This document shows positions 1,741 to 63,081 of a stretch of 64,000 nt of DNA, piece after piece. The translations under genes were made by a program, and so were the position numbers. Source of the stretch: Lingula anatina (lineage: Eukaryota; Animalia; Brachiopoda). The notes beneath the pieces were generated by a model. The model saw nothing but the letters and a program-made list of their open reading frames with translations. It ran no database searches and was not told where the DNA came from. Positions within the stretch are counted from its first letter, which is position 1. The number at the start of each line of letters is the position of its first letter. Where the stretch lies: contig CM120645.1 of NCBI GenBank assembly GCA_051362555.1, positions 11,284,001-11,348,000 of the forward strand, given 5' to 3'.

Positions 1741-4700
1741 GAATTGGCTTGAATGAGCTACGTGTAGTAGGCCTATGAAAGGAATACCCAACAGATGTCT
1801 CGCGATGGAATCTCGACAAAATTATGGGTGTCTAGTGCGCGTATTTATGTTTCTTTTCTTACTATTGTCAATTGAACACATAGAAAAGGAAAATGAGAGT
1901 TCCAAAAACGGATTTAACTGTCTGGAGTCAAACATACGATCCACTGGATCATGTACTTAATCCTTTCCGAAAATAATTCAAAATTGATACCAATGAAATG
2001 CACGCATTTTTTCTGTTGCAAATCACCTACATGTAAAACACGTACTGTTAGCATCGATGCCTAGTTCAAAACACCCTTTCATGGTCCATTTGCGTGCATA
2101 CCTAACTACGGCGACGGCGCCATAAAGAATTTTAACACTCCAAAACCTAGTCACGAATCATGTCAATAATATGTAAAAAAAAAAAATACATACCATGTGC
2201 GCACGTGATGCCCTCATAGCCGTCAACACACATGCACGTGAAGTTAGCAGCGTCGTCTATACACGTGCCGTTATTGTCGCACGGGGAACTGTCACACTCA
2301 TTAATCTCTGTTTAATCAAAGCAAGTCAATTTTTAAAGTTGCATTTGGCTTCCCATGTAAGTAATCTATAATTTGTTAATAAATGCTTTTCTTTTGTTTT
2401 TCTTTGCTTTTGTTTGTTATTTTGTTTCTTCTCTTTATAGTTTAATCAATATCATAGAAAAGAATTTGCATGGTATCTATCATTTTAGTAGCATACTAAT
2501 ATATTTCGAAAATCGCAAAAAATATAGTTGAGGAAAATGAGAATTCGTACCTATCGTTGTTGGAATTACATCCGTCGTTACATCTACTGGTACGGTGCTG
2601 ATATTGAAGCTTCCTTCCACTGAAAGAAAATGCTCTCTTTAAATTAAGTATGAAAATCTAAATAGATTTACGAATGGTTGAATATGTTAATTAGTAAAAA
2701 ACGCATTGGTGAATAGAAGAAAAAGCTCATGTACCAACAAGCAAGTGAATAAATAGAACAACCACAAAAATAGATAAACAGGCACAAATTAATATTTTCA
2801 ACGCTTTATACGTTTTATCGTGAGTTTGTATCACTCTATCCATTGTCTAACCTGCTGTTATGTTTACAATTTCCGTAGTTAAATCACGTTTATATGTCCT
2901 TCCATCCGTAGTGTACAGCGTGGAGCTTGAATCTGTCGTCAAACCTTTCACCTTTGACCCCGCGGTGTCAGGTGTCACTGTGTCCGCAGTCGTTAACGTC
3001 TCAGACCCGATGGTCGTGGAACTTTTTGTAGTGACATCATCGTCAGTGATATTAGGGTAGTCTGTACTGGTGAGGCCTATACGTGGAATGTAAAAGTATA
3101 GAGACTAGTTTTGACAAAATTTAAATGAAAAAGCACTACAATTTCAGGTAGTGGTCGAAGTAACCTGATAGATTATCAGAAGAAGAAAAAGAGAGAGCTA
3201 TAATACTGTATGCTGCCACGAATTTTAGACTGCAACGTGAGCAAAGGTAATAACCGGATTTTTGATTTTTCTTTTTTTCTTTCTTTCTTTCTTTTTTTTT
3301 TTTTTTTTTTTGGAGGGGGGTCTGGATAGGGCAGTTTATGTTTCTGATCATGAATAACGAATAACGACTGAACAGTTGTTAAAACAATTGCATAAACCAA
3401 AACACATTAATGGCATCGTCAAATTGCAGGCAAAGCTAAGGCAAATTTTAAGTCACAATATACCCTAAGATTACACCGACGTACCTTGGCCCGCTGCTGT
3501 CGTCTGCTGTGGTGACGTCACTGCTGTCGTCTGCTGTGCTGACGTCACTTCTGTTGCCTGCTGTGTTGACGTCACTGCTGTCGTCTGCTGTGGTGGCGTC
3601 ACTGCTGTCGTCTGCCGTGGTGACGTTACTTGTGACGTCTGTTGTGGTGACGTCACTGGTGACGTCTGCTGTGGTGATGTCAAGCTGCTGGGTAAGATGG
3701 AAGTTAACCCCTCTTCTACTGTGGAGTCTCCCGGTCCCTCTGTAAACGTACTTAAGGCTGTAGAGCCGCTGGCATACTTTGTAGAAATACTGCCCTGGCT
3801 GAAAAACTCGTTAGTCTCAGTTGAGTGGGATTGATCATGGGATTGATGTGCGTCGGCTGTGGTGGTTAAAGAAATACCAGTAGTTTCCATTTGGCGATAT
3901 GTACTGTACTGCTCCGTTGTTTGTTCGGCGTCATTCCTTCCCGTTGTTATCACGCCATTGCTGGCAGTGGACAGACCCGCCGTGCCGCTCGTTACGCTGT
4001 TTACGTATGCTGCGGTGCCGCTGTCCGCGGAGCCTGACGGAGAAGCGTCGTTTTGGTCAGTGAAACCTGTGGCAGAGATAGAGCTACTTGGCGAATATCT
4101 CGTCGTCGTCCAGTCATCGGACGGGGATGTCTCGTCTGGATCTGATGTTCCTCCGACAGCTGTTTGAAGCTCATTATTTGTAGGCGTGTTTCCAGCAGAA
4201 GTTTCTGCCTCTGTTCTCGATACAGATGAAGTTTTTAACGCAGACGTTTGTAAATCAGCAGTAGGAAGCAATGTTAATGCATTATCTTCTGTAACAGTGA
4301 TTTCTGAATCTTGTTGTTTTGCTGTGGGTGGTACAGTTGGTTTGAACTGACCTGCGCCTACTCCGTCCGTTTCAGATTGCGTTGTTGTCGACATTTCCCC
4401 ATCATGAAAACCAATTGTGTTGGTTGAGATTACCGCACCGTCAAGGCTGATTGTGCTAGATGTGACAGGTTCCCCTCCAGATTCCATTGTGCTGCTATTT
4501 AACTCTCCATCATTGTTAATTGTCACATTTGTAACTGAGCCGCCGCCCGAATTGATCAAGGATGTGGTGCCTTCGTTGGTTACCAACGTTGTTTTTGTCA
4601 CAGATAACTCATCAATTTTATATAAACGTGTGCCCTTTTCTACCTCCGTTGATAACGGTACCGGATTTTTCTCTGTATTTAAGTCATCATTATCGGTATT

Positions 4701-4859
4701 TATCTCTTCAGACATCGTCACGCTTTCCCCCGTTGATGTTATTATACTCTCCTCGGTGCTAAATGCGTTTGTAATCTCTTCCTTTGCCGTCATCTGTGCT
4801 CGGCAGAGTTGTGCGTCAAGCAAGCAGTACCCAAGAATAAGATAGGCAAGGTGTTTCAT
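521..4859 (-). CDS. Secreted or cell-surface mucin-like protein with calcium-binding EGF repeats (5' part; gene likely continues leftwards)
   Basis: Exons with GT-AG ends and consistent phase 1: 4859-3485 (signal peptide MKHLAYLILGYCLLDAQLCRA + S/T-rich stalk), 3076-2852, 2619-2551, 2307-2194 (EINECDSSPCDNNGTCIDDAANFTCMCVDGYEGITCAH, 114 nt) and 637-521 (DINECERFAPCDNGATCIEGVNNYTCLCSLGYEGRNCSN, 117 nt). These are typical phase 1-1 cbEGF exons. Confidence 0.85.
846..1684. mobile_element. Non-autonomous Helentron/HINE-like element
   Basis: Subterminal inverted repeats AGGATTCCCC (848-857) and GGGGAATCCT (1642-1651). A short internal inverted copy GGGGAAT (861-867) is followed by a TAT microsatellite. 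Internal TGACCTTGACC/AAGGTCA arrays are present. A 3' hairpin ACTGGCT-TT-AGCCAGT (1657-1672) precedes CTAGTT. It lies in T-rich flanks with no TSD. Confidence 0.7.
1683..1737. repeat. (TTA)n microsatellite
   Basis: Pure TTA run directly after the HINE-like element end. Confidence 0.95.
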
Positions 4860-5040
4860 CTGAAAATAAATATTTATGGTGAACCTTTGCTCTTCTTCAA
4901 AGCTTTTTTAAAACCTGTTTTATTCTGTTCACTTATTTATTTATTTATTTATTATTTTTGCGGGTGGGTGGGTGGATGGATGGTGACCAATTCATTAAAT
5001 GTACAAAACGTAAAATGATCTAGAATGCTTACTTCTCCAT
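3165..5040 (-). CDS. Alternative short N-terminus of the mucin-EGF gene (exons 5040-5033 and 3229-3165)
   Basis: ATG GAG AA|gtaagc (5040-5033, phase 2) joins ttgcag|T CTA AAA TTC... TCA G|gttact (3229-3165) to give MENLKFVAAYSIIALSFSSSDNLSG. This is signal-peptide-like and exits in phase 1, compatible with exon 3076-2852. Confidence 0.5.
3495..3685 (-). repeat. 27-bp coding tandem repeat (TSPQQTTAV-like units) in the mucin stalk
   Basis: About seven degenerate copies of GTGGTGACGTCACTGCTGTCGTCTGCT on the + strand. Confidence 0.9.
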
Positions 5041-15016: not shown

Positions 15017-15194
15017 TGACGTCATGGTGCTCTGTCCGTCCATCTGCCTGGTACTGTACTATCACAAAGCAGAGTAGAATATGCAAATGAGCCAACCGCG
15101 GCTTAGCTCTCAGTTATTATGACGTAGAAGGGATCGCCACTTTTACTTCCCTCTCGCAGGCGGTTACTCTTATAAAGGCCCCTGCGAGTCAGTT
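15017..15194 (+). promoter_or_regulatory. Candidate proximal regulatory region of the neuropeptide gene (CRE, octamer, TATA-like)
   Basis: Perfect CRE TGACGTCA 15017-15024, octamer ATGCAAAT 15081-15088, half-CRE TGACG 15120-15124 and TATAAA 15171-15176. A strong acceptor-like TTTTACTTCCCTCTCGCAG ends at 15159, so these motifs could instead be intronic. Confidence 0.45.
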
Positions 15195-15225
15195 GGGTTA
15201 TAATGAAGAAGGCAAGATAAGCGCG

Positions 15226-15789
15226 ATGCATCCCCCAGTTTTGTTTTGTTTCGTATGTGCACAATTCCTTGTTACCTTTTCCTTGGAAACTTTGCCAGTT
15301 GTCTCCTCACTGCAGCAGCTGCCTTACCAGCCACAAGATGATGCAAAGCACGCAGACGACATTTCAACAAATGACGAGAACATGCTGGAAGACCTAGAGG
15401 GGATATTTTTTGGGAGGGAGCCCCCCGAACAACACCATTCTCTCTATCCGGTCGTGAACCAAGACACCTTTGGACTTTATCAGAGATTTGACAAAAGGCG
15501 AGACTTCATGGGCAAACGAAACGCAGAGATGAGTAAACGTAACGAGGCCTTAGCAAAAAGAAGAGACTTTATCGGAAAGAGGCGTGACTTTATGGGCAAG
15601 CGACGGAGTTTTATGGGAAGGCGCTCTGAGGCGGAGGACTTTCCCAAAAGCAGAACTTTAAGTGGCAAGAAGTCAGGCGACGATGCCTATGCACTCCTGT
15701 TAAAAAAGAACCGCGGGTTTATGGGGAAGCGGACCCGAGGATTCATGGGGAAGAGAATCAACTTTCAGGTCACAGAGGTGAGAATGTAG
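15226..15789 (+). CDS. Neuropeptide precursor yielding RxFM/RxFI-amide peptides
   Basis: ATG at 15226 and a hydrophobic signal (MHPPVLFCFVCAQFLVTFS). An acidic spacer is followed by Gly + dibasic flanked repeats: RDFMG-KR x2, RDFIG-KR, RSFMG-RR, NRGFMG-KR, TRGFMG-KR. Single coding exon of 187 aa. Confidence 0.93.
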   Translation: MHPPVLFCFVCAQFLVTFSLETLPVVSSLQQLPYQPQDDAKHADDISTNDENMLEDLEGIFFGREPPEQHHSLYPVVNQDTFGLYQRFDKRRDFMGKRNAEMSKRNEALAKRRDFIGKRRDFMGKRRSFMGRRSEAEDFPKSRTLSGKKSGDDAYALLLKKNRGFMGKRTRGFMGKRINFQVTEVRM

Positions 15790-20578: not shown

Positions 20579-21832
20579 GGTATGCAAGATGCTTTCCACG
20601 TCGGAGGGGAGGGGGGAGGTTGAAAGATGATCCCAATGACTTAAAAAAAATTTTGGTCTTCTTTTCAGGAAGGTTTAAAATGGGGTCTTATGGACAAATT
20701 TAGCAAAGAATTTCACCAGCTGTATTCTGTACTCGAAATTACAATGATAGCTTCTCCAAAGTACAGCAAAACGAAATAGCTATTCTTGGGGGGGAGGGGG
20801 GGGCTGTCATTGGTATAAAGGTGTATTTTGGGTTTACCTTGAATCCACTAAATTATATGACGTGCTAACTGGCAATCAATCTTCCACTTTGCCCTCTTAT
20901 CGACTCAAACGTTGGCGAAAATGATTGACGTTAAATATCTCTCACAAATATTGATTAGAAAATTGTTCATATTTGACATATATGGCAGAGCGAAGGTTGA
21001 CATCCGTTTTCACTTAGGTTGATAACTTGAGATTTCGATATAAATCAAGCGATATAGGGACTATATCTAGGATTGTCTGGGAGATAATCGAATGACACCT
21101 CGAATGTTTAACCGAAAATTGCTCTTAATTGGCTGTTTCGAGAGAAATAGAGACACTCCTGTTATAAATCATTCGTTGTTTATGTTGAGGGCAAAGATTA
21201 ATGTATAGTCGCTTCTGACATTATTTTGTTGATAGAGTGATATTATGTGGACATTAATAAGTCAGCTGGCAGGCGGTAAAATGCACTTACCACATAATAT
21301 CAACGTGTCCACTTTCCTTACGCCTGGATTTTAATTCTATCATTAAGAGACAAACCATGTCAACTAAGCTGTTCAAGATTTACTTAATATCTGATAGAAA
21401 TTCTTAACTTTTTTATTCTTTTTTGTCATGTTTTTTTAACAGGGCAGCGCCGAGGATTTTAACGCCGTAGAAATAAAATTCCCAAAATCTACTTGTGTAT
21501 ATAATTAGCTTTAGGTAATTCCTTATCATTATTTATTATCCCTCTATCCATTTTTGTCGTTACAGGACACAGGCTTTGACACCAATGGTGAGAACACCAG
21601 CGAAGGCAGATGCCGAACCAACCAAGACTGCAGCACCGACGCTAGCTGTTGCACCCTCTACCTGCCCTGGCTCGCGACCACGCAATGCCTGCCAAGAGGC
21701 AACGAGGGAGATGTCTGCGTACCGGAGCACTTGCACAAACCGACCGAACACTACTTCTGTCCTTGCCTACAGGGTCTGCGATGTGACGTAATAGGGGACT
21801 CAACAGACCGTGGAATTTGTATTAGAACCTGA
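17726..21832 (+). CDS. Prokineticin/astakine-like (colipase-fold, 10-Cys) secreted protein
   Basis: Last exon 21566-21832 has C-x5-C-x5-CC-x11-C-x9-C-x13-C-x-C-x5-C-x11-C with the 'CLPRGNEGDVC' and 'CPCLQGLRC' hallmarks. Proposed upstream exons are 17726-17744 (ATG..G|gtaaat), 18042-18124 (signal: MALIQIVGTGLSLSWVTLFILAVILSGISPGIAS|gtaagt) and a 24-nt exon 21443-21466. The last exon is high confidence; the 5' exons are moderate. Confidence 0.8.
20521..20578. repeat. (AAT)n microsatellite
   Basis: Near-pure AAT run. An (ATTT)n run lies nearby at about 20377-20420. Confidence 0.9.
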
Positions 21833-28151: not shown

Positions 28152-30757
<2,606 letters not shown>

Positions 30758-40428: not shown

Positions 40429-43400
40429 ATGGAAGAGCTTCCGGTTGAGTGTTCGTGCTGCAACAACTGCAAAAAATATAAGAAAAGGATTCTTGTAACT
40501 GGGGGTGCGGGCTTCATGTAAGCTCATTGATAGTCTTTACGTCTTCGAGTGTTTGAAAATATTCGTTGAATAGGGGTAAAAAGGCAAACATTGACACGTT
40601 CATTCATTCATTCATCAGTCGGCAAAGCTGAGGTGACCCGGACATCTGTTTATTTTTTTCAAATTCAGCTTAACAAGGGTTTAGGGGACTGGCCATTTAG
40701 CACAACTCAAGTGCGTGCAGTAAGCCGGAATTTCCACATTTGTTTATACACCGTCTGTGATGATAGCACTGCATTGAGTTTAGATTTAAAACTAAGTTAG
40801 AATCTGAATCTCTAATCTCCTCATTTTTTTCAGATTTAGAAATGATTGCTTGTGGAACAATTAAGAAAGCACATTGTAATGCATTAAGTGTTAGTTTTTT
40901 AATGTAATGTACGGCAATATATCATGTCATACAAGCTGTTTCTTTATTTGTAATTTTGTTCAATTTTGATTTTGCAGAGGTTCACACACTGTTATTCTTC
41001 TTGTGACAAGGTATCCAGATTACTACATTGTCAACCTTGATAAGGTGGGTATTGCTGCAATATTGTAGAGTTGTTGTAAGGATGTTTAAATCCACATTAC
41101 CTTATCATTTTCTTTTCAAAACTGTTATGAATATTTTCAAATATTAAACAGTGTTAAAACAAGCATACCTAGCTATTACATGAAGCAAAACAGTGGTCAG
41201 TGCCTCACATGATGTATATATACATATCCTTGACTGTTTAATTATTCCTGTATAATGTGAGTATTACAGCAGTTATTTTTGTAGATAATTAAAGCATGGT
41301 CTGTCTTTCTAGCTTGATTATTGTGCCAGTGTGAAAAATTTGGAGAGTATCAAAGGAAAGTCAAATTATAAATTTATTCAGGTATGTAGAAATTAAAATA
41401 CCTTAAAGCAAGCAAAAAAGGTAAGGTGCTCACTTATACATATATATGAAGTTTTAAATGTTAATGGAAAAATAAATGAAATTATGATGAGATAATTTTA
41501 AAGTAAGTAAAAATGCACTCTACTGATTGACTTAGGTGTCTTATTCCTGTGCTATGCTTCAATTCCAAGTTTTTGATTAGAATAGATATTCTGGCTTATT
41601 AAGCTACCTCAGTTTTAAAATTGTTTGAAAGGATGGGATTTTTTGGTTCATGCAGACATGCAGCAGAGGCAAACCTGTTTAATGAAGTAATTATAAGCAG
41701 TGTGAAATAAGTGGAAAAACAGAGTTGAATTTTAAGCAGCTGAGTATACTAAGTTATTAAGTAAGAGTTGATTTAGTTGCTGTACACAGGGTAGTTGCAA
41801 AAGAGTCAGTGATCAGAGATTGTTTAAATGTTGTGTTTACAGGGGGATATCTGTGAACCAGACTTCATGCGCTATGTCTTTCAAGAAGAAAGGATTGATA
41901 CAGTTCTTCACTTTGCTGCAGAATCACAAGTTGGTACGCTCATAAATTAATATAAACAGCATGTATTTGTATTTAGTACAATAATTTTATACAGTCTAAG
42001 GATAATGCTTTGACAATATTTTTTTATTTACATCTGGAGATGCCTTAGTTTAAATATTGATTTAAAATTGATTTGTTAAAATTAAAGAAGTGTGCTAAAA
42101 TCCATCTGTTTGTTTATTGTATTTATTTTGCAAACCAATCTCCTGTTTGCAAATTTGAAGCAGTTTGGAGATAAGATTTTTCAAAATTGAACATTTTCAC
42201 CCCCTCAAAAAAAATGGTGAAAAGTTGAAGAAAAGTTTTGCCTGATTGTCCTGTTCCATACTCTTCCAGACATGTCATTCATATATTCACTTGACTTCAC
42301 ACGCACCAACATCTATGGCAGCCATGTTTTGGTGAACGCAGCTTACGAGGCAAGAGTGGAGAAATTTATCCACGTCAGTACAGATGAAGTCTATGGAGGA
42401 AGTAGCACAGAGGTACATTGCCACAAACTGAAAAAAAATTTTGCAACATTTTTATTCTGTAACTTTTTTGTCATCAATTTCTCATATAAAATAAATTTTT
42501 ATAGTGTAACCCTGCTGGTGGTGCATACCCAGTAGGCAGTGATTGGGAAGGAACGCGCCATTGCGCCATACGCGCATAGAATCGTAACTGGGCGCATAAA
42601 AAGCCCTGTTTGTGCGCCATAAGGGCGCGTGATTTTGTTATACCTCGCGTTTTTAAAAAGAGTCTACTCGTCAATAAACTATTCGTCAACTGATTAGCGT
42701 AATTTTCCTCTCATACCTGAAGACGTCTCAGGAACGAATTCGGAAGCTGTCGAACGCAATCGCCGAAGTTTGCCGAGAGCAATGAGCACATCGTCCCAAT
42801 AGATATGCTAATGAAATAAAAGCTGATATCTTATTGGCCAATCGATTTATAGGTCATGTTTATCCAATTAGAAGTAACCTTGTTTTCGTTCTGAAAGTAC
42901 ATGGGATTTTTCAAGCAGCACTTTGGTGAAGTGAAAAGAAAAATGCCGCCGAAATAAGATTTTTAAAATCTCGCCAGACCAGCCTACATTAGTTAGTTTA
43001 TTTACTTCAACCGCTTCGTCTAAGGGTCCGTCCAACGTTCAGGAAGAAGTCTCAAAGGAGACGGGGGAAGAAAATGTACCAACTTCAAGAGCAGCGCTCC
43101 TTGCACTACGACGAGTAGTGACACTGACAGTAGTGTTACTGCTAGTGCTAGCACCTCTCACTCTCAGGTCGCACGAGGTTTCCAACCCCGAAGGCTTCAA
43201 CTATGGCCCTGGCTCCAGTACGACTGCGAACAGTGTAAGAGTTAAGATTCTTGGGAGTAAGACGAGTTATGAGGATGCACTGAATGTGTGGCATAGGGAA
43301 AAGAGATTACGTCATTAAGTAATGAAATCTCTTTTCAGTGAGACCGATTTATAAGTACTAGACAGTATGTGAAGACAATTTCATTTACATTTTCTCAGTT

Positions 43401-46400
43401 TTGAGTAATCAAGGTTTTCAGAGATCTAGATTGTTTACCTGTTGTTGATGGTTTCATCAAATAAAAAACAATTACTTATGAGTATTACATGTTTTCTGAT
43501 CATTTTGTTTTTTCATTTAGTCTTCAAATAAGTTCAGTAAAGAAGGCATTGTAATGGTTTTATTGAAAAAGACAAATAAAACTCTTAACTAAATAAATAT
43601 ATTAACAAAGTTTAACTGCAAAACCTTATCATATTATTCCCAAAAATATTGATACAGATATTTCAAATATATTTGTCATGTTTAAAAATGGCCCATAAAT
43701 GTCAAGCGATGGCCCATTGATATGCAAAATGGCCCATTAAGGGTGACCCAGGAGGGGCCATTGTCCCATGGGTGGTTTGAACCTTCTCAATCACTGAGTA
43801 GGCACTTATACCTTTTTGATCCTCTAGTTCTGGTATTTCATTGTAAATGAGTATATTATGGCAAGTGCAGTATGAAACACTCCTTGTCAAATTTTCTGAA
43901 AGGTAGTTGTTAAGAATACTCTCTGTTGATAGATTATACTGTCCTGAAATTTAGTGCCGAATCTTGAAATGCCCCTATAAAATGTGATGTGTAAGACGTT
44001 TTTATAAATTAATCATCATTGTAAACCTCTTTCTTAGATCAATTTGTCAAGAAGTATCATTTTAGTGGCTTTTAGAAACATGCTGGCATTTTAATGTGAT
44101 AAAGAGAATATTCTCACTCTAAAAGGTGATTTGATAAAAGTTTTTTTTTCATGTTTAAGTATGTAATCTTTTGTATATTCCAATTAACAAAATTAGTTCA
44201 GGTAAACAGTATCTTCATTATTAAGTGTTGAGTGAAAAAAATGGCCACATTCAGAACAGTGAACTAACTAGTCTGATTGTCCAATATGGCTACCCACTAA
44301 AAACTTGCCATCTTATCCGTTATTAAACACTGAATAGATATCCTGTGGGGAAGTATTCAAGTGGGTCAGCCATATTTGACCCTCAGACTAGTTAGTCCAC
44401 TTTTCTGAATGCAGCCAATTACTGCTTTATTCTAATTAGTGCATAACACAGTTGATGGGGTTCTTCTCTGACACCTACAGGTACTGAAAGAAAAATCCAA
44501 CTACAAGCCGACCAACCCATATGCTGCCAGCAAGGCGGCTGCTGAGTGCATGGTGAGATCATATTGGGAGTCATTCAAAGTAAGGCATATCCAGCTGGAG
44601 CTGCTCTTATTTTATTAATTCATTGAAAGGTTACTTAATATGTTCATGCTCATGTAAATATTGTCATTACTGACTTGTCATTTTTGGCATTTTGTCTGCA
44701 TATTGATAATTAATGTAAAGCTGCTCCCATATACAGTGTATGTGCATCCAACTGTGACGGCTCAAGTTCAGGTAGTTTCTGAGTGTGTTTGATAATGTAC
44801 TTGGCAGTAGAGAAGATTGAAATTTGTATTTATAATCTCGTGGTTAACTGAGATCATGGCAAGCTTCTAATCGCTCCCATCACAAATGGACTGTACATAA
44901 TCACTGTAAATAAAGTTTATGAATACTAGGATGATTTTGAATGTTTATAAAGTTTTTTTCCTTGATTAAAACTTTTCATATATTAAATATATAATTTAGT
45001 GAACATCATATTACCACAAATTTAGTGAGCAATTCATAAAATTTGTACGTGATAAAAAGTTTTTTTAAACACTAACTTTAAATTCAGAAAAATGTCAGTG
45101 TGGGTTTGAAGAGTGATGATAATCTCTCCTATTTGCAGTTTCCTGTGATAATAACAAGGTCCAACAATGTCTATGGTCCCCACCAGTATCCAAGATCAGT
45201 ACGTATTATCTTCTCTTAGACCATTCCTCGGTATTCAAACTATGTAGCATAGTATTACCTGCCAATTACACAGCCAATTAGGTCTGTACATAATACATTT
45301 GATATTATTCTAACACTTCGCAAAATTTGCACATTTTAACCTATGAAGGGCCACATCACTGAGAAAAACAGTCATATCCTCTGATTGTTTGAGAAAGTTA
45401 ATGTTACATGATTTTAACACTGTATTCTGTGAAGTTTGTCTCAAACAGTTTTACATGCATTTCCTTGCAGGTCATTCCAAAGTTTATTTCTCTGCTGGAC
45501 AGAGACAAGAAATGGTAGGTAGAAGACTTCTAGATTATGTATCAGAATGCTTGTTTGATTAAAAAGTAAGTACTGCAATAAAATAGAGATATATTATTAA
45601 CTCTTTAATATATGATATGAAAGCTAAAGAATCCAAATTTTCTGTCCTGAAGATAATGCAAGCGAGTAATGTTGAGAGAAATTATATAGACTTCAAGGAA
45701 ATTTTGACAAATGAAATTAAGTTCTTTTTTTACCTCCACAAATATAACACAATCATATTAGATTTTATTAATGAGTTGGACATGATTGCTCCTTCCTAGC
45801 TACTGACAGGCCATTGTACAATTAAAGCATATCCCATATTCATATCAGTATCTCCATTACGTTTCTCTTCTACATCTTCAGCTGTATACATGGCTCAGGT
45901 GACAGTATTCGTAACTTCCTGTATGTGACAGACGTGGCAGAAGCATTTGACACCATCCTCCACAAGGGGGAGCCAGGCGAGATCTACAATATCGGAACAG
46001 ACTTCAACCTGAGCATTTTAGGGTTGGCAAAATACCTTATAAAGAAAGTGAGTATCATATACGTACTAGTTACAACACAAGTAGGATATAATTACGCTTT
46101 TTATGTTGCATACAGTGGATGCAGAGCAGTTGTAACTGACTTATACCACAATCGGCAGTTCAAACAATAGGAAGTGTATGAAAATACAGGCAAGCCTATA
46201 TGGGAAATACAAGTTTAATTATACTTTTTCAGATCAATTGTAGTATTTTTTCTAATTCTCTGTTAATATAGCTGAAGGGCATTACGACAGAGGAGGGCAT
46301 GCAGCGGTACCTGGATTTTGGGGAAGACAGGCCTTTCAACGACTACAGATACATCATGGACTCCTCTAAGATTGCCAACCTTGGCTGGCAGCCAAGAGTC

Positions 46401-50418: not shown

Positions 50419-53400
50419 TCAATTTCGAAACTCAACAATTTCATAAACATTGCTGCCACTTCGAGTTGCAAAATGAGACGAACAATCAAGTGCTTTGCTG
50501 TTGTTGCTGTATCCTGATTCGCTGAGGGGCGCATTGTTGCGAGGCAACGCGTACACGTGACCCTCTTCGCCGCCAGGTGCGCAATGGTGCCGTATCGTGG
50601 ACGTTCGTTCCCCCTCGTTGGGCGTGGTCATAAGTTCCAGATAATCGCAGTTTTCTCCAACATGCGTGTTGCAATTGTGCGTGCCAAGCTGGTTCACGTA
50701 AGTCGGGGAGAAAGCAGAAGAGTTGTAATATATGTTATCCTGAGCATCGCCAGCTGTAGGGCTTCTGGCAGCGCCGCGGGCATCAATCGGATCATAGTAC
50801 CCGCCAGCGTCGTCGAAGTCCGTGTTACTCTCATCCAGGGGCGGGGCGCTGGCAAGGACCTGGCTGCGCACTGAGACGCGGGAGTCGTCGATTGATGCAT
50901 AAAGGTTCGACACGCGCTCTGGATCAATGTCTGTTGGTGCCAGGTAAGTCGTTGACGGGTGGTTGTTCAAGTGACAAGACGAGCCCTCAAAGAAGCTGAA
51001 TTCGCTGTTCCAGCTCTGTCCCGTGAAATTTGGGGGTCGCTGCTGCTGCAGGGCATCACTGTCGATGTAGACGTTCGACGTACTGTTAGTGAAGTCCGGC
51101 GAAGCAGAGGCCCCGTCGGTGACGGCGATTGTTGGTAAAACGCCCTTATAAACTGGATTGTTCTGAGATGAAATGGATGCAAGAAAACTTTGATTAAAAA
51201 ACTATATATGATCAATATATTTGAAGGGTGATCGATAAATAAGATTGCAGTATCGATTTTTTTCTAAACAGAAATGTGCTAGGCATGTTGTTTTTTTTTC
51301 AGAAGCATTTGCTCCGAGAAAAAATAAAACCCACAGCAAACGATGAGCATTTTCTGATGCTATTTGCTGCCAGCACACTTACCTGTAGAGTTTCTGTCCT
51401 TTTGGTGCTGAACCTTTCCGGCAATCGTATTCTGTAAAAGAATTAAATACATTAGGCGTAACTCACTTATTAAAAAAGTAAATAAAACCGACATAGAATT
51501 AAGTCTACATAAGTTCTTCATATCCTTTAACAGGGCAACAGAGCATTTTCAACAGATATTCAGAAATATTTCTCTGGCTAATTTTGTTCAAATTTCTGTA
51601 CTGTGGGAAACTGTGCGAAAAGAACAAATGACGTCAGCATCCAGATACAGTAGCTCCCTCCAGCGGTGGGAGGAGCAGACTGACACTTCAGTCTTCGTTT
51701 CTGTGACGGGAATTATTTCCCTACCCCAAGGCAACTTACTTTAGCAATGTTGGGAGGCCAAGTAAAATTTGTATTTTGATTACCAGAACATTTTAATGAA
51801 TGACCTCCTGTGGTTGAACAATGTTTTTTTTTATACTTTGAAATTATCTTGTGGAAACGTCTTGCAGCATAAAGACCGTTATTCGCGCAATAAGAAATAT
51901 AAATACAAATAACAATTCGATTTACATGACTTAGCATAAAAAACCAAAAACGAAGCATCAGAAAAGAAAAATAAAATATTTGTGACAAACCAAAAAGTGC
52001 ATCTAACATTCAGCTCGCCACACCCCATTTTAATTGATTTTAATTGTTCGGCGGAAGATGAGCGGTCGAAACCTTGTGATGCCTTTCTCGTAGAGATTCA
52101 GCATGAAATGGCCTTGGGCCGTGATTCATGTAAGCTGATTTATATACTCAGTATATTATTTATTTATTTATTGTGACTGTCAATACCTTGCGGGTATAGT
52201 GGATGTCGTGAAGAGATTGAGTTAAGATTAAAACGCACTGAGTCACCCTAGGGACACCTCCATTGTTGCCGACCTTCCCCCTGTGTTATGTGTTTCATGA
52301 AATTATCACCGTGCAACTTTGTATAGAAGGTATTTACTGGCTGTTAAACTTAAATAAATATCTTCATATTCTAAGGGAATCAAAGAGAACTATAAACGTT
52401 AAAAAAGAATAAAACTTGGCCATGTAATAAAATGAAATATGATAATTTATTATAATTGTCAATGGTCTAAACTGGTGGATGAACGGAAATTCATATCGGT
52501 GCAAGGAAAAAGGCTAAGGGACCGACAATTTGTCCTTAACCAAAATTTGGATAGATGGAATACTTTGACCAGTGTAAATATCATACCAGATATTATGAAT
52601 ATATTGCGGTAATGGTATGAGGAAATTATAGGTAATGACCGCGCTCTTTTTACTTACTTCTGCTTTTTCAAGCACACTATGAATAGAGCTGTAGAAAGAA
52701 TGAGGAGGGCAGCGAAAAGCAGCCCCACAACTACTCCTGTCACAACGCCGGTAGAGATCGCACCGTTGCCAACTTTTTCACCGCCTTCATCTGCATAAAA
52801 TACATGAAAAACAATTAAAACATGATTTTCAAAGACCACATGTAATTGGCTTTCACGAATATAGTATCCATTATATTTTAATTCGCGTGCCAATTAAAGG
52901 CAATTTGTGTTTTTTAAGTACCACTCAGTAAGTATCCCAATCAATACCATACAATGGCAAAAAGATTGGCCCAAAACTAATGTAAATCACTTCATACTAG
53001 AAACCATTACCTTTCCCGTCACTTGTATCATTCGCTGGTTCAAGGTCGGGTGTTCCTATTTTGTTGACGCCCCACGCCGCTGTGGTTGACGAACTGTCTC
53101 CATCTCCTTTCTGAGTTGTCTTTCCCGACGGATCTTCATTGGAAGCAATATCTATCGAACCGTCGGATTGTGTACCATCCGGATATTCAATACCTGGCAA
53201 TCCGTCCAGAGAGAGACTACCACCAGATGAAGATCCGGTTGATCCTTCATGAGAGAAGGAGTCAGCAGAACCGCCGTTATTCGTAGATTCGTCTGTCCCC
53301 CCATGTATTCCGTCTTTAGGAGATTTTTCTGTCGATGTGGGTTGCGTATTCTGTTCACTCTGCCCTGTTGGTGCACTGGGTTTAACTTCTATGTTCCCTG

Positions 53401-55110
53401 GCTCTACTGTTGTTTCCCCTGGCCCTACTGTTGTGCCCCCCACTGCTGTGTCCCCTGGTCTCACTGCCGTGCCCCCTGAACCTATTGTTGTGTCCCCTGA
53501 CTCCAATGTTGTGACGCCTGGCCTCACTGTTGTGTACCCTGGCTCCACTGTTGTGTCCCCTACTGTTGTGTCTCCTGGCCCTACTGTTGTGTCCCCTGGC
53601 CGCACTGTTGTATCCATAGTTTGCGTTGCCTCAGTGAATGCAAATGGCGTAGGAGTAATTTTGGGAGTTGTTTCCAGATTAACACTGGAAGTCGTGGGAA
53701 TCGTTTTTGAAGTTGTCGTTGCTTCATTTTGGACAGAATTTGCAAGAATTGTCGTGATAGGAGTAGTAAGTATGTTCATTGTCACTGTTGTGGGCTGAAT
53801 TGTAGCTGTGGTTGGGTTCGTTACAGGGGATTCAGTGACCGTCAAAGGGGCCGCAGAAGTCTTCAAGAGAGTCGATGTTGAAGTATCTTTCCAAAGGGTC
53901 GAGGCTGAATTAGTGATCAAAGGATCCATTGTTGTAAAGTTGGCTAAATGAATTGTTGTCGGTGGCGGCATTGTTGTGTGAGCTGCCGGGTAACTTGCAC
54001 TAGTCTCTAGAGGGTTCGTTGAAGTAGCCGCCAGAGGAGTCGTTGAAGTAGTCAACACAGGAGTCGATATAGTTGTTACCAGTAGAGGCCTTGTAGTTAT
54101 TGCCAAAGGAGTCGTTGAAATAGTCGTTGGAGGAGTCGTGGTACTTGTCACCAGAGTAGTTATTGTTGTAGTCGCCAGAGAAGTTGTAGTAGACACCAGA
54201 GGAGTAGTTGTAGTCACCAGAGGAGTAGTTGTTATAGTCACCAGAGGAGTTGTTGTTGTAGTCACCAGTGGAGTTGTTGTTGTAGTCGCCAGAGGAGTCC
54301 TCGTAGTAGTCGCCAGAGGAGTCGTTGTTGTAGTCGCCAGAGGAGTCGTTGTAGTCACCAGAGGAGTAGTTGTTGTAGTCGCCAGAGGAGTCGTCGTAGT
54401 AGTCACCAGAGGAGTCGTTGTTGTAGTCACCCGTGGAGTCGTTGTTGTAGTTGCCAGAGGAGTCGTTGGTGCAGGAAATGTCGTAGAAGGAGTTGTCGTT
54501 GGAGGGTCCCGAGGAGGTTTTGGCTTGGGCTTGCGCTTAGCTGAAAACGATAAAAACACTTAAGGTTCGATAATTTGCAAAAGCTAACATTCGAAAAATA
54601 TTTTCCCCGATTCTTTTATAAATATAAAATATTTATCTTAATACTACTGAAAAAAGTCGACACTTGTAGAGCATACACATACAATGTACGGGGGCAAAAT
54701 TTGCAAAAGTTAACTGTCAGTTTGTCTTTGCAAATCGGTGTCAGATAGTGATTGGTACTGTCGGCCGGAAATAAATCAAATGAGTGTGATAATATGAAAA
54801 AGGAAATTAGTTGCTTGTGTTAAGCCATTATATTTCACTTCTGTACAATTTCATAAACTTTATTTACTTCACTTTTTAATATTTTACTAAAGACGTACTA
54901 AAATAAGAAAATCTTATGTAGCCTTTAGATAATAAGTATTGCAAATGCTTTGCCTAATTCTTGATCTCTCTTCATTTCTTATAAAAAAGAAACAAACAAA
55001 GGCAAGGGAAAAGAGAAAGTCTTACGTGCGTATATTCCTTGGACGTGAAGACTTAAAATCCAGATTATGAAAAACGTTGAAATTGACACAAGTTTCCGAC
55101 GTCTTGGCAT
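50419..55110 (-). CDS. Type I transmembrane mucin-like protein with tyrosine-motif-rich cytoplasmic tail (about 846 aa)
   Basis: Exons 55110-55026 (signal MPRRRKLVSISTFFIIWILSLHVQGIYA), 54540-53011 (T/P-rich stalk), 52790-52658 (TM ISTGVVTGVVVGLLFAALLILSTALFIVCL-KKQK), 51431-51383 and 51162-50419 (NNPVY... to stop). Phases 1,1,2,0 are consistent; total 2541 nt. Confidence 0.88.
53395..54470 (-). repeat. Coding tandem repeats: 21/24-bp TTTTPL(V/A) array (about 54000-54470) and 21-bp PGDTTVx array (about 53395-53610)
   Basis: Repeated GTAGTC(A/G)CCAGAGGAGT and CCCTGGC...ACTGTTGTGT units on the + strand. Confidence 0.9.
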
Positions 55111-56422: not shown

Positions 56423-56891
56423 TGTGTGAGCGTGAATGTTTGCAATGTGTCAACGTTAGAAAAAATAAAGACTGAATAAAGCATTGTAAAAAACAAAATC
56501 ATTTATTTGATAAATTCATAACAGCTGAGAATACGAATCTTCACTAAACGTGTGTTCTTACTGTTATCTAAACGAGTATTTATCTTTAATTCTAAACAAT
56601 TATTGCATGAAAGTAATAAATTCTATTAGGACATTGACATGGAACTTGAAATGTATTTAATAACTTTAGAAGTAATTAAGGCATTCATACTTGTAAGAAA
56701 TATATGTTCCAATCCACACTTGAATTTGACACTTACAAAAACAAAAAATATGCAAATGTCAACGGAAAGAATCAACCCAAACGTAAAATTGACATAATAT
56801 TATACTGTGCAGTGTGTTTTTTGCTATAAAGATGCGAGTCATCTCGTTGAAGTGGTTGTCAGAACTTCTGTCACGCCACTGCAGGCATCAT

Positions 56892-59800
56892 CTAGGCGCA
56901 TGCGCCGTTTTTATTTCGTATTTGCTGAAATGAAGCGAGCAAGGTATAAAATGAAATATGAGCTCTAAAGGCAGCAATTTTTAAGGTTGATATTCTTAGT
57001 TAAAATTATTATATTATATTCAACCAACAAAATTATCTTCTTTGACTAGAAACAGATTTTTTGCATATGTGAAATGCTGTAACTTATTAATAAATACAAC
57101 TCGCATTACAGTGCTAGATATTGTTGAAAAGGAAAGCTGACCTCTTTCAAGGAAAAATTCTTTTTAAAATATCAAAACTCCCTTATTCAATTGACACTTT
57201 CATCCACTTTTTTTCTTCTTGAACGACCAACTATTTTGACAATTTCGTCAATTTTTTTGTATACTTTTAAAAATATTTTGCCAGCAAACAACCAGACAAA
57301 ACAAAGCCGATGCAAGTATCTTCCTTCGTGCATATATACAAAGATAGCCATTGTGAAAATGAAACGTTGAATAGAGACATGTGGGAGATAAAGCATTATT
57401 TTCATATAGTACTTGAAACTATCCAATGATGAAGAAAAATCTCGTCGTCTTATTGGCAAATTGATTCTGATTTGGAAAAAAAAAATCAAGAAATCTTACC
57501 CAATGGTCCCAGGTCCTTATCTCAGCGTACATGGCAGCGCCAGGACTCACAAACCCGGACACCTGGCAGTGAGCGTATATGACATAATCCTGGGTTAATT
57601 TTCCTAAATACGCCCCATACTGCAGCAGGCGACGAGCAGTTAAGATTGAGGAATTTGGCGGCAAACTCGTTTCAAAGTTGCCCGTGAAACCAATGCCTAT
57701 GCTATCGTAGTTCCACCTAATGTCGAAAAAAACTTTTACTCTAAATCTAAATCTGTCTGCACCTTACAGTTATCGACTCAGTGTCACTTGGGACTAGTAG
57801 ACCCCAGAGAACCTCAAGGACTATTAATTTGAAACTAAATGTAGATATATAAATATCGGAAATTAAGTCAAAACAATAGCTACTAAACTGACTGGTGATT
57901 TCATATCACGTTTTTTTTTAAATTTCAACGTCAAAACTACTAGTCGTTTGTATCTCAGACCGCTGGCAAACATAGTAGACATAATAGCTGTGACTGGTGA
58001 GGTTAAAATATTTAACCAAATATTTAAACATTTGACTTATGTGAATTAAATTTCTTATAGATTCCAAAATATTTAGTATGCACTATCAGAAAACTGTGCC
58101 AATGCGAACACCAATCTGTACTTGAAATGCTTCTTTTCTGTAAAGTTTATATATCGGGGTATATTAAGCAAAAATTGATCCAATATGTTACCAGTCGATT
58201 ATATTCAAGTAGTCTGGGAGACGGGCACTCGGCTAGATATTTACCCTCTTGTATGTCTTCCTATTTGGTCCCATCCTGTCCCTTCATATACCACTCCATC
58301 TCCACCGACCATGAAGTTGTACCCTATGTCACCCCAGCCTGAAACAGCCATTGAAACGTATTTACACTGTTTCACACGATTCCAGTCAATAAGATAAATC
58401 CCTTTACACGCGATTTCAACCCTGACCTTTTTTTTTTTTTTTTTTTTTTTTTGGGGGGGGGGGGTAGTGACTTCCTGATTTACAAGAAAAACCAAGGTAA
58501 AAAAACTGTTTCCAAGAAAGAACACATTTTAAACGATTAAGAATTAAGCTGATCACGCCGGAGAAAAAAATCTTTGCAAAGTGGTGAAAATTGCGAATAG
58601 TTTATAACGTGTGTGGAAAATTCAAAAGGTACAAGTTTCTTCCCGTTTGATTATTTAATAGCTGTGTAATATGTCTAACAAAACTGAATTTTAAAATTAT
58701 AAATAACAATCATCTAATTTTATATAACAAGCAACGAAGAATTTGAAAAAATCCTTAATAGTGTGTAAAATACCTCGAGCTTTCATGTGGAATTTCTGTG
58801 TCCATTTGACTTCCATGCAGCAATAGCTAGTGCCGTTACAGCGGGCCCCTGCCGTATGAGCTATGACGGCGTAAGGGACGGGTTGAGTTCGGTACGGGTA
58901 CTCCCCAAGAGGAGCTTTAGCTCCCCAGCCATCTCGACTAACGAAAGGAAATTCGACTTGCTTACCTACAGAATAAAGTTTCCAAATAATTTTTTTTAGA
59001 AGTGGGTTTATTTATCTTATATGTCACAGGGATACCAGCAGTTAAGATATACAGTGTATATTTCATGTCAAACGCATTAAATTCAATATATTAAAAAAAA
59101 CAATATTTTTGTACAAAACGATTTCAAAATCAATTATCAATATTGCGTATGGAGCTATCAATAAAGAAGTAAATGTAGCTCGATAATAAAAAAGACTTTA
59201 GATGACCTCACAGCACAAAATTACCTTTCCACCTGAAGGTAATATTTTCAGGTGTAACCTTCTCACACACAGAGGTAGGGGCGTGGTCGTAAGGTGGCGT
59301 TTCATTTGAATGAACGATGAATGAGACAGCCAAAATAACAGCGACTGTTGTTGAGACTAGTACTGCAGTGATGGCCACGTAAAGACGTGCCCTTCGTCGC
59401 TTAGCAGTTGCCTTCGCGTCCTCTTTATCTCCAGTACTACATTCCGTTTGTAGAATATATTCGGGGTTTCCACCAAGGCGACGCAAAGGGTCACTGAGAT
59501 CATTAAAAATAGTCTCAAAATTTTCCACCTGAATGTTGTTTGGGCTCACAGCAGATAATCTGTGGCAAAGGTCTTTTATTCTGATCACGTCGTGTTCCGG
59601 CTTTGAATCGTCTTGATTCGACAGTGTTGACCAATCCGCGTCCTTTAGTGCTATGTTTTTAACAAGGATGTACAGCAGGGACAAGTCCATATCATGTATG
59701 TTAATGCTCCCCGAGCTTGGGCAAAGTAAAGAGAATTGCTTTTCAGTTAAAACATTGTTGTTCCTCAATACCTTAAGAACGCTCAGGTTCTGCGGTTTCT

Positions 59801-60567
59801 CTAGGAAGGCCTGCAGTTGGCGCGTTTTAATTCCGCACACCTTTGTGAAATAGTCTCTCATGCATCGCGTGCATTCGTTTATGGTTCGGGCGTACAATTG
59901 CTCGCTTGTGCATCTATCTAAAACACGACAATATATTTTAATGTGAATCTTATATTACAACGGCTAGGTTTTTTGTTTATTCAGTTTAACCCTTCCTGTG
60001 TTTTGCTTTATTTCTTTCTAACTTCTGTTTCAAAATGTTTGATTCACTTTCCCTTGGCGTAAGATAATTTCACTACTAGTACCCCGGTATGTATTCATGG
60101 CCGAAAAATGAACAGTAGCCTAAATCATTTAATTCTAACGCACATTTTCATTTAACTATAACTGTTGTTAATAAAGCGTTTAAACATGCACTAGTAAAAA
60201 CACTTACGCTGATACATTTCCAACGTACGCATTACTTACATTTTATAAGAAATTCCTTCTGTCTCGATTTTATATCCGACTCCAGTGGGGCTTCTACATC
60301 TGTGTCTATGTTAATCACCTCGACGACGTCTTGGCGACCTATTTCCGAGCATATCTTGCACAAATCCACTAATAATTCGTCGTCTGCTTTACCAGACTTG
60401 TGTTTATAGCTAAGCAGAACACTTTTTGTAGGTTCAGCTTCTCGCTCCAGTTTGCGGATTTCGAGGAAGGTGAATCCCATTCTATGTGCCACCATTCTCC
60501 AATCGTTCCCAAACACGTCTGTGGGGTCCAACAGAAGTGCAATTTCCTGTAAGGTCTTGTAATCCAT
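56892..60567 (-). CDS. Type II transmembrane PGRP with N-terminal Death domain and DZIP3-like HEPN domain (about 518 aa)
   Basis: Exons 60567-60240 (death domain: [32 protein letters not shown]), 59917-59225 (HEPN-like: [38 protein letters not shown]; then KRRRAR + [26 protein letters not shown]), 58965-58774 ([25 protein letters not shown]), 58338-58245 ([27 protein letters not shown]), 57716-57500 ([33 protein letters not shown]) and 56924-56892 ([10 protein letters not shown]; least certain, read-through would stop at 57419). Phases 1,1,1,2,0 are consistent; total 1557 nt. Confidence 0.88.
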
Positions 60568-63081
60568 CTTTCTTTGATAATAGTCAGATTGGAACGTAGT
60601 AGGTTGCTTCAGATTCCGGGTATAAAAATGTCCCCTTACGAGCCTCAGTTATACACATTGGATGACGACCTTTAAGTGCAAGTCACAAGATTTTCGCTGT
60701 GAATTGACATGGTAAAGGATTGCCTAAACTCGCAACTGTAATTCAGAAACCACTGGGGTTGATTTTCTTCCTGAAACGGGAATAGATTAAGTGCGCAGTT
60801 TTCTGCGTCTGATTCATGTCACGTACGGTGTCAAGATCAAGCTAGTAAACTTCCAACTTGAACAACGTACGATAAAAGTCAAAGTTGAGTCACCGCACTG
60901 AACAGAGCGCAATCCTAATATAAATCAGGAAACTTAATATAGGTCAAAAGCATAAAAACAGGTCTTTCTGAGTATCATTGTTCTGGTTGGCCACAAACAA
61001 AAGGCAGTGTCTGTGTTAGTGAGGTCGACTTTACTGAATTACATAAGCAGGTACACAAAGTGCTAACTCTCTAACCCTACAGATTTGTGGGTCCTGAATA
61101 GCAAATTAGGATGATGGGACCCTTAAGTGTTATTAACGTTCGACCTCTGTTGCCGCGTCTTGCCAAATGAGAAAGAAATAAAAAACCAAAATCATAATCA
61201 AAGAAATGCAATCATCGGCGTAATAAGGTCCAGTAACTCGTTAATGTGCACACCTTTAAATATCCACATGCTTTTAAACATATACTTACATCAGCAGCAT
61301 TCTCTTCTTCCCGGATCTGAAGTTGCAATGAACTCACGTCACTGGCAAAACACACAGACTCTGGCAGGACTTAAATAGTTCCGTTTAAGAGAGGTCAAAA
61401 AGGGAGGTCATGAAATGCGCGTGCAGATCGTAATATGGAAACTTGGGTCAACAGCTTGCGTCATTACGAAGAGTCACGAAACTTTTGTTACCCAAAATTC
61501 ATTACTTAGAAGTAGATTCTTAATAATAATAATAATAATTTATTTCTTCTTCCCAGGACATAATGAAACGAAATATAGCAAATCAATGTCTTTCTATTTT
61601 ATAATATAATATCATATAATTTTTTTTACACATTTTTAATCTCGTTGGCACTCAGAAGGAATATAATTCTGAACAGATATACAGCATATGTGTATTCCGA
61701 CTTTGTCATTATCTGTAAACTTTTAGTTACGCCAAAGTAATTCTCCATAAGTGATATAAGTGCGCCCTTTGCTTAACAGTGCACATTCACTGAATTTGAT
61801 TCGCTTCGGTATGAATGCAATAAAAATTAATGAATTCTACAATAGATGCGAAATATTACTCAACCTAACTGGTAGGACCAAGGATTAAGGCAGAAAAACA
61901 TATCAGGGCTCAAAGGTGGTTGTCCTATCCTCAGAACATTGTGCATATCCAACAAATCACTCACCAGACGAGTCCTGTGTCTACGAGCCCCCTTTTGACC
62001 ATCGATGGACCATCTTGATTCAGCTAAACCACATTGATTCCAGTGCTGGTTGAGCAGGTTCCGGTGTAACGAAACTGAGGGCCCATGTAACCGAAAGTCC
62101 GCCCTCCATATAGTTTTTATGGTTAGGGTTATCCTGACCTAATTGGGTCCAAATCTAGGGCGCGGCTTACCTGTAGAAATGGGGGACTCTGTTACGTTAC
62201 ACCGGTGCCCCTGGACCCCTTACCGTAACATTCTCAAAAGATGTCTTCCTTCATTTGCAAAAGGTGACTTCAGGGATACCACAGACTCTACCGTGATAAC
62301 GCACATGCACAAGGGCGTTGTCGGGTGAGTGATTAGGTGCAGAAACCACAGCCGTCTTTGGTTATATTGTTATATTGTTCGTTGTTGTGAATCTCCAACC
62401 ATTCTGAGAAAACTTTTCCAAGTAGAACAGTTCCGTGAAATCACATTTAATTACTTTTCTATTTTCAGTGCATTTCCAAACTTAAAATTTCGGAAGCAAA
62501 CACAAAGGAACATTTATTTTTTATTAATCTGAGCAAGATGCAGCATATACAGGTTTCTGCAACGTCATTTTCTGTAAACGTGGTTGTTAATCGCTATAGT
62601 AACGAGCACGATGAGTCCTTTATTGAAAAGATTTATTGTTCACCAACACCACCAAAACACATATGTTCCCTTAGCTGTCTGACTACATTATACACCACCT
62701 ACTACTGTAAATGCCACTATAAATGGATAACAGTGGATAATAGAGTGATAAAAAAATAACGTTTTAACCTAGTTTTCACTCTGACCTTGATTAAGCCTTA
62801 TATAGCCCTTATATTAAGCGTGAAGGCAAATATCAACGCAATCTGATCTCACCCAAAGCATTCTTGCTCATGTATCCCAATAAGTCAGACGTTGACCATG
62901 CAATAACAGGATGAGGAGAATTTGGTTTCCGAAAGTGCAGCTTTAAATACATACTGCTATAATAGTACATAAGGGAGATACCCTAACTCAAGCGGATGGT
63001 TATCATAAGTATGATACCATAGGAGACCAATGTCGATAATGAATATGCAGTGAAATCCAGGGTGGCCAACGCATGCTGCTA

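Follow-up and report, generated by a model that had tools for sequence, protein, structure and literature searches.

A Lingula anatina gene joining a death domain, a DZIP3-like HEPN domain, and a membrane-anchored peptidoglycan recognition domain in one predicted chain

How could a spiralian peptidoglycan recognition protein (PGRP) signal without a RHIM and without Imd? In brachiopods and molluscs, transmembrane PGRPs exist, and RHIM-bearing PGRPs and Imd were not found (PMC9835746). A gene on the minus strand of a 64-kb stretch of Lingula anatina DNA (the window, to which all coordinates refer) suggests a testable answer, namely that the death domain of the adaptor has been built into the receptor itself. 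From the N terminus, the gene encodes a death domain, a DZIP3-like HEPN domain, a single predicted transmembrane helix, and a PGRP domain. We propose, with a probability of roughly 0.5, that the product is a type II peptidoglycan receptor whose clustering would nucleate a Myddosome-like death-domain assembly without a TIR or Imd step.

The first-pass annotation had described a six-exon gene for 518 amino acids (aa), with the death-domain and PGRP exons in one transcript, and both claims held up. All six coding exons have AG/GT ends, and when spliced they give 1557 nucleotides (nt), which encode 518 aa and a stop with no internal stops. Eight RNA-read runs carrying the same species label (X1 and X3 to X9) were mapped to the window. 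All five coding joints were present in three of the eight (X7, X8, and X9); X4 contained four, X5 three, and X6 one, and in X1 and X3 the gene was uncovered by reads. The joint between the death-domain and HEPN exons was crossed by 6, 7, and 18 reads in X7, X8, and X9, respectively. It was absent from X4 to X6, which are shallow runs (60 to 144 reads), though reads did fall on that exon. The X7 to X9 reads are mostly 90 to 95% like the window and therefore derive from a divergent population or a close copy; those of X4 to X6 match the window more closely, and nearly all of their first mates at the gene lie on the plus strand, as expected for a minus-strand transcript. No long read spans the whole transcript, and the single chain follows from the overlapping joints together with the RefSeq model. 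A pair of genes fused by a gene-model artefact was ruled out by the RNA joints, the RefSeq model, and a counterpart in the annelid Owenia fusiformis.

Upstream, loose read ends at 60770 (four reads, X7) match 61290 to 61305 and are followed there by GTAAGT, which places a joint from 61290 to 60770. The 5′ untranslated region (UTR) in the exon that follows contains two upstream ATGs, and an in-frame stop lies 28 codons 5′ of the ATG at 60567, which is therefore the first usable start. In the last exon, poly(A)-signal-like hexamers occur at 56661, 56590, and 56507. The X4 to X6 reads carry small insertions at 60586 and 60686 in the 5′ UTR; these insertions and the ∼5 to 8% divergence of the X7 to X9 reads point to high allelic or population diversity at the gene.

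When exon 2 was used as a query, one protein was retrieved among 1152 candidates, Lingula anatina LOC106153404, which is 518 aa long, contains all three Pfam domains, and is entered in RefSeq as "uncharacterized." At 96.5% identity, 18 of the 518 residues of the window protein do not match it, and 24 do not match the near-copy LOC106165502. On these identities, the window gene is either a different allele of the annotated, uncharacterized LOC106153404 or a copy very close to it. The three domains named earlier were recovered by Pfam above its cut-offs. Death scored 51.4 bits (cut-off, 22.6) in exon 1, and HEPN_DZIP3 scored 92.2 bits (cut-off, 27) in exon 2. Amidase_2, the PGRP domain, is divided over exons 3 to 6 and stayed below the cut-off in each piece, yet it reached 56.3 bits on the whole RefSeq counterpart. 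Death, HEPN_DZIP3, and Amidase_2 were the only Pfam domains in that counterpart, with no TIR and no kinase.

A search with the full protein gave 10 hits from 7997 candidates. An Owenia protein of 609 aa has the same domain order and aligns over 99% of the length with 34% identity; the Lingula paralogue LOC106168506 likewise has the Death-HEPN-PGRP order. Because the same architecture occurs in Owenia, a gene-model accident is excluded; the Death-HEPN-transmembrane-PGRP architecture is real, expressed, and conserved in two phyla. That both a brachiopod and an annelid have it points to an old design more than to a one-off shuffle. In Owenia, the neighboring accessions CAH1777915, CAH1777919, CAH1777921, and CAH1777923 form an apparent tandem cluster of such genes, with two full copies and partial ones recorded on a contig of equal length, and the full copies differ at the PGRP specificity residue (Arg versus Ala).

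Further analysis placed the window gene, by its domains and alignment, in a small HEPN-(transmembrane)-PGRP family. Among the 157 proteins considered after a search of representative sequences (the best 150 of 12353 matches, further members being possible), the HEPN region was matched by seven and the death domain by four. Pfam, run on 66 of the 147 new proteins with the longer ones chosen, gave HEPN in three and Death in none. A profile search with one family alignment (A3) picked out 8 of 7998 candidates, none of them a new member; it is a weak negative, since some known members escaped it as well. A tree of the PGRP domains alone was built by a quick method from 157 rows, all of them retrieved by likeness to the query. 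In this tree, the 10 HEPN-bearing rows fell in one group (Shimodaira-Hasegawa-like approximate likelihood ratio test, 88; 0 of 500 shuffles). The Owenia pair grouped with LOC106168506 (84) and not with the window gene, which sits on a long branch apart from this Owenia-like paralogue. The tree fits one origin before the brachiopod-annelid split; it falls short of proof, given the moderate support, the choice of rows by that likeness, and near-copies that make the clustering look stronger.

The death domain had been called reminiscent of MyD88-, IRAK-, and Tube-type domains, and by sequence MyD88 comes closest among solved structures. Its best PDB match is MyD88 (3mop_A; E, 2e-7; 34 bits, with the next match at 20 bits), and the next families are UNC5 (E, 0.006) and IRAK3 (E, 0.016). 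The family profile and the Owenia protein, used as queries, likewise matched MyD88 best among solved structures, and the match of the window domain is densest over the stretch aligned to the YLEIR segment of MyD88. None of the 20 PDB matches up to an E of 10 was a FADD or death-receptor domain. A MyD88-like assignment among solved structures is supported by sequence likeness. The domain is also the best-conserved part of the protein relative to Owenia (∼51%): against the two full Owenia proteins, 43 to 44 of 85 positions are identical in the death domain, compared to 69 to 70 of 163 in the PGRP and 45 to 48 of 146 in the HEPN domain. In the four death-domain members compared, 31 of the first 85 positions are invariant.

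At the opposite end of the protein, the PGRP domain is predicted to have a T7-lysozyme-like fold. The best PDB match of the ectodomain is Drosophila PGRP-LCx (E, 4.7e-42), and the model superimposes on it (2f2l_X) with a template modeling (TM) score of 0.93 by target, a root mean square deviation (rmsd) of 1.4 Å, and a Foldseek E of 1.4e-15. The groove residues H377, T378, Y411, and H433-T434 line up with those of PGRP-LCx and PGRP-SA. Two features that the first-pass annotation had not noted stand out. First, the PGRP is likely a noncatalytic sensor. H377, Y411, and H485 are kept and the zinc triad is incomplete, with S493 where the zinc Cys would be; all 10 family rows have Ser or Ala at the position of the third ligand. 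The argument is that S493 is the equivalent of C160S in PGRP-LB, a change by which zinc and nearly all activity were lost (PMC8124813). An active amidase was ruled out on the same residue. Second, the specificity position is Thr425, within an EGTGW shared with PGRP-SA. The Arg that binds meso-diaminopimelic acid (DAP) is Thr in the Lys-type PGRP-SA (PMC8124813), and we infer that specificity here leans to Lys-type or relaxed. Arg occupies this position in 7 of the 10 family rows and Ala in one Owenia copy, so different paralogues may recognize different types of peptidoglycan.

Between the HEPN and PGRP domains lies one strongly hydrophobic stretch, at about aa 290 to 310, preceded by KRRRAR; the N terminus has no strongly hydrophobic segment. 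In the RefSeq allele, six Lys or Arg residues precede the helix and one follows it. The same bias to the N side is found in seven of the eight membrane-bearing family rows, with a tie in the eighth. In the type II topology claimed earlier, the single helix and the N-in orientation are predictions from charge and hydropathy, by which the N terminus would be cytosolic and the PGRP outside or luminal. The whole-protein model has a mean predicted local distance difference test score (pLDDT) of 71 and a predicted TM score of 0.41, so the relative positions of the domains in it are not fixed.

The HEPN domain departs from most of its relatives at the putative active site, another point that had not been noted. 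Rx4-6H is the predicted ribonuclease (RNase) active-site determinant of HEPN domains (PMC3710099), and in the window protein the Rx4H motif is not in register, with C227 and A232 at the R and H positions. The motif is likewise lost in the near-copy and in LOC106168506, and an out-of-register R222-x5-H228 pattern persists in the window protein. In-register R-[NH]-x3-H is present in 7 of the 10 family rows, including both Owenia death-domain proteins and members that have no death domain. The latter include Lingula LOC106150586/LOC106168632 and LOC106156274, which have the HEPN-transmembrane-PGRP order with an intact RNxxxH and which are candidate peptidoglycan-gated receptor RNases; for LOC106150586, the ESM Atlas gave no usable match. 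Another cluster (P0102/P0159, from JGI/IMG and Logan) has HEPN and PGRP with an intact RNxxxH, no inter-domain helix, no death domain, and, in the PGRP, a degenerate groove; in P0159, a weakly hydrophobic stretch lies at the N terminus.

The identity of the DZIP3-like HEPN domain rests on the PF18738 profile (92 bits) and the helical fold. Structural matches were weak: the best had a Z of 7.0 (rmsd, 3.8; 92 residues aligned), sacsin HEPN had 6.5, and several HEPN structures had a Z of 5 to 7. For the HEPN model, Foldseek gave no match with an E up to 0.001 and VIA-align none at a Z of 8 or more. Two copies of aa 110 to 283 of the RefSeq allele were predicted to pair, with a score of 0.43 compared to 0.00 for the best of three controls, contacts agreeing to at least 96%, and a pLDDT of at least 80. 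The mark for self-pairing was reached, in a microbial calibration, by 21 of 30 one-chain pairs and by none of the 23 single chains. Among eukaryotes, 17 of 29 pairs reached it (animals, 7 of 16; pairs lacking an older solved relative, 1 of 7), again with none of the 30 single chains.

Beyond the gene structure, splicing, domains, residue states, and conservation observed above, the steps of the proposed mechanism are inferred and would run as follows. First, the N terminus would face the cytosol and the PGRP the outside or a lumen. Second, the PGRP would bind peptidoglycan without cutting it (Cys to Ser), with a leaning to Lys-type or relaxed specificity (Thr425). Third, polymeric ligand would cluster the receptors, as polymeric peptidoglycan clusters PGRP-LC (PMC9387487), and the catalytically dead HEPN domain would serve as a spacer or self-association module. 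Fourth, the death domains would seed a kinase-recruiting helical assembly. The death domains of MyD88 assemble into helical oligomers and in this form engage IRAK4 (PMC7054835); here, IRAK4 or MyD88 would probably be recruited, leading to NF-κB activation.

Several observations weigh against this reading. Of four N-glycosylation sequons C-terminal to the helix, the RefSeq allele lacks three, so they give little support to the topology. The HEPN-PGRP pairing also occurs with no death domain, in three Lingula records and one further cluster, so the family can exist without that domain. When predicted folds were compared, clusters of MyD88, UNC5, p75, and NRADD all gave TM scores of 0.77 to 0.84 and MyD88 was not singled out; the sequence comparison of the death domain covered solved structures. 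PGRP-LB C160S retained slight activity when zinc was added (PMC8124813). The predicted HEPN interface (aa 151 to 168 and 196 to 206) is separate from the Rx4H site, and its conservation does not exceed that of the remaining domain (0.45 versus 0.49, six rows), so that support for self-association of the HEPN domain is modest. Finally, three simple patterns for a κB-like site gave no match in 60568 to 63000.

The intact HEPN motifs of the relatives leave room for a different history, with a cytosolic HEPN ribonuclease controlled through the membrane by a peptidoglycan sensor. The family would then be an ancient, so far unrecognized spiralian class of single-chain receptors with an IRE1-like logic, to which the Owenia proteins would add the MyD88-like death domain as a second, kinase-recruiting output. 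In Lingula, the two outputs would be split between RNase-only proteins (LOC106150586 and LOC106156274) and death-domain-only ones (the window gene and LOC106168506). We regard this account as tentative and, on the whole, rather unlikely.

Signaling of the death-receptor type would bypass Imd differently: the receptor would recruit FADD together with a protease resembling caspase-8 or Dredd, with cleavage of Relish or cell death as the outcome, and would replace both PGRP-LC and Imd. Components downstream of Imd are present in brachiopods, together with transmembrane PGRPs and with no Imd or RHIM-bearing PGRP (PMC9835746), and the predicted fold resembles the receptor death domains of p75, UNC5, and NRADD as closely as that of MyD88. 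However, MyD88 is favored by about four orders of magnitude in E value, and the domains expected for this wiring fell outside the PDB matches described above. We consider it unlikely.

The protein could instead be a decoy or brake that binds peptidoglycan and uses its TIR-less death domain to sequester IRAK4 or MyD88, dampening Toll and promoting tolerance of the microbiota, much as PGRP-LF acts for Imd. The lack of a TIR domain, the lost HEPN motif, and the long branch apart from the Owenia-like paralogue would suit such a role, and PGRP-LF is a precedent for an inhibitory transmembrane PGRP (PMC9387487). The known inhibitory PGRPs are short-tailed, however (PMC9387487), and although the conservation of the death domain across phyla suits either role, a domain coupled to a ligand would more simply pass the signal on. 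We consider a brake improbable.

A dimerized HEPN domain might also cleave RNA in this very protein, as in IRE1 and RNase L, either through other residues or in a pair with an active paralogue. The in-register motif of 7 of the 10 family rows, the predicted self-pairing (0.43 versus 0.00), and the retained R222-x5-H228 are in its favor. Against it, both catalytic positions are replaced here, as they are in the second Lingula death-domain paralogue, and the predicted interface excludes the motif; in the portions of the literature available, no measured RNase activity of a DZIP3-type HEPN was found and the activity is termed putative (PMC9646362). We judge it very improbable. Least probable of all is a nonsignaling receptor for capture or uptake, or one with the opposite topology or an internal location and N-terminal domains for trafficking or scaffolding, since the death domain is the most constrained part and seven of eight rows have the positive-inside bias, even though the topology comes from simple charge and hydropathy counts and one family cluster has no inter-domain helix.

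The proposed receptor resembles several known systems in part. With Drosophila PGRP-LC (LCx), the best PDB match of its ectodomain, it shares the Ser at the zinc-Cys position and a single predicted helix followed by a C-terminal PGRP, whereas its cytosolic part would consist of folded helical death and HEPN domains and Thr replaces the DAP-binding Arg. A loose RHIM-core pattern found no match in the first 300 aa. Drosophila PGRP-SA is secreted and signals indirectly via a protease cascade; it has the same specificity Thr and is noncatalytic, as is likely here, but the window protein combines the sensor with a MyD88-like death domain in a single membrane chain. The pathway fed by PGRP-SA is Toll/MyD88 (PMC8124813). 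Compared to MyD88 and the Myddosome, the death domain is close in sequence, but there is no TIR and the domain is tethered to a membrane sensor. Unlike TNF-receptor-type death receptors, the protein has a PGRP rather than a cysteine-rich TNFR ectodomain, and its death domain is N-terminal rather than C-terminal. IRE1 follows a comparable logic, with a membrane sensor joined to a cytosolic RNase domain of the HEPN class; in contrast to IRE1 and RNase L, the window protein has no kinase, a predicted type II order, and a putative microbial ligand, and no KEN domain was found among the 50 fold matches listed. KEN is counted as a HEPN class (PMC3710099). The DZIP3/hRUL138-like HEPN immune proteins of marine invertebrates belong to the same Pfam family, and fusions of HEPN_DZIP3 to DEATH, CARD, NACHT, and LRR are known (PMC3710099, Table 1; PMC9646362); in the portions available of these sources, fusion to a PGRP or a membrane helix is unreported. 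In the pearl oyster, 194 of 202 HEPNs retain Rx4H (PMC9646362), which is lost in the window copy. The window protein is a variant transmembrane PGRP receptor outside the PGRP-LC, MyD88, and IRE1 families.

A study of the Lingula immunome, Gerdol et al. 2018, is the source cited in PMC9835746 for the transmembrane PGRPs of brachiopods and molluscs, and it concerns the same species and the same protein class. The odds that a death-domain PGRP was already noted there are about even, because a domain scan would probably detect the death domain. The titles and abstract openings covered contained no description of a PGRP with a death or HEPN domain. The same was true of the available portions of PMC7308585 and PMC8476170, and no literature was found on an Owenia fusiformis PGRP. 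If the proposed mechanism is correct, an Imd-type sensor would be joined to a Toll-type (Myddosome) output. The relatives with an intact HEPN motif, if active, would be receptor RNases gated by a microbial ligand, and no such animal immune receptors were found described. The family also offers natural controls: members with and without the death domain, with and without the RNase motif, and with Arg or Thr at the specificity position. The coordinates of the gene are collected in Table 1.

Table 1. Exons and domain features of the receptor gene in the window
Feature	Position	Strand	Remarks
Noncoding 5′ exon	61290..61458	-	Donor after 61290 firm; 5′ end approximate; low depth in bin 61288-61458
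5′ UTR (203 nt) plus coding exon 1	60240..60770	-	ATG at 60567; aa 1-109
Coding exon 1	60567-60240	-	Death-domain exon
Death domain, aa 7-85	60313..60549	-	Pfam PF00531, E 1.2e-13; MyD88-like by sequence
Coding exon 2, aa 110-340: HEPN, basic stretch, transmembrane helix (predicted), short stalk	59225..59917	-	Both flanking joints in RNA reads
DZIP3-like HEPN, Pfam span aa 142-275; helical domain from ∼aa 114	59421..59822	-	PF18738, E 3.4e-26; AlphaFold pLDDT 81
Degenerate HEPN RNase motif, C227..A232 (R..H in relatives)	59550..59567	-	Alignment columns
KRRRAR (aa 282-287) and single predicted transmembrane helix (∼aa 290-310)	59316..59402	-	Hydropathy 2.45-2.5
Coding exon 3: start of PGRP, zinc-ligand position H377	58774..58965	-	Alignment
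Coding exon 4: PGRP core, Y411, specificity residue T425 (codon at 58279)	58245..58338	-	Alignment
Coding exon 5: remaining PGRP, H485, S493 replacing zinc Cys (codon at 57547)	57500..57716	-	Alignment
Last exon: coding 56924-56892 (10 codons, stop ends at 56892), then 3′ UTR	56500..56924	-	3′ end approximate; read depth to ∼56500

No immune gene cluster was seen among the neighboring genes in the window. On the minus strand, 50419 to 54559 encodes a long mucin-like Thr/Pro stalk, a probable membrane helix (∼52680 to 52760), and a 260-aa frame rich in Tyr motifs, with no Pfam domain above the cut-off. A 478-aa Ser/Thr-rich mucin-like frame with a signal-like start and tandem repeats lies at 3448 to 4907 on the same strand and has no Pfam match. 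The plus strand carries, at 15091 to 15789, a frame resembling a neuropeptide precursor, with repeated DFMG/GFMG units flanked by dibasic sites and no Pfam match; at 21515 to 21832, a cysteine-rich prokineticin/astakine-like exon (Pfam Prokineticin, 25.4 bits); at 29722 to 30081, an ARF-family GTPase exon; and at 42221 to 46170, exons of an NAD-dependent epimerase/dehydratase. Finally, a short element at 62060 to 62160 drew many RNA reads on both strands whose flanks were unrelated and is likely a dispersed repeat.

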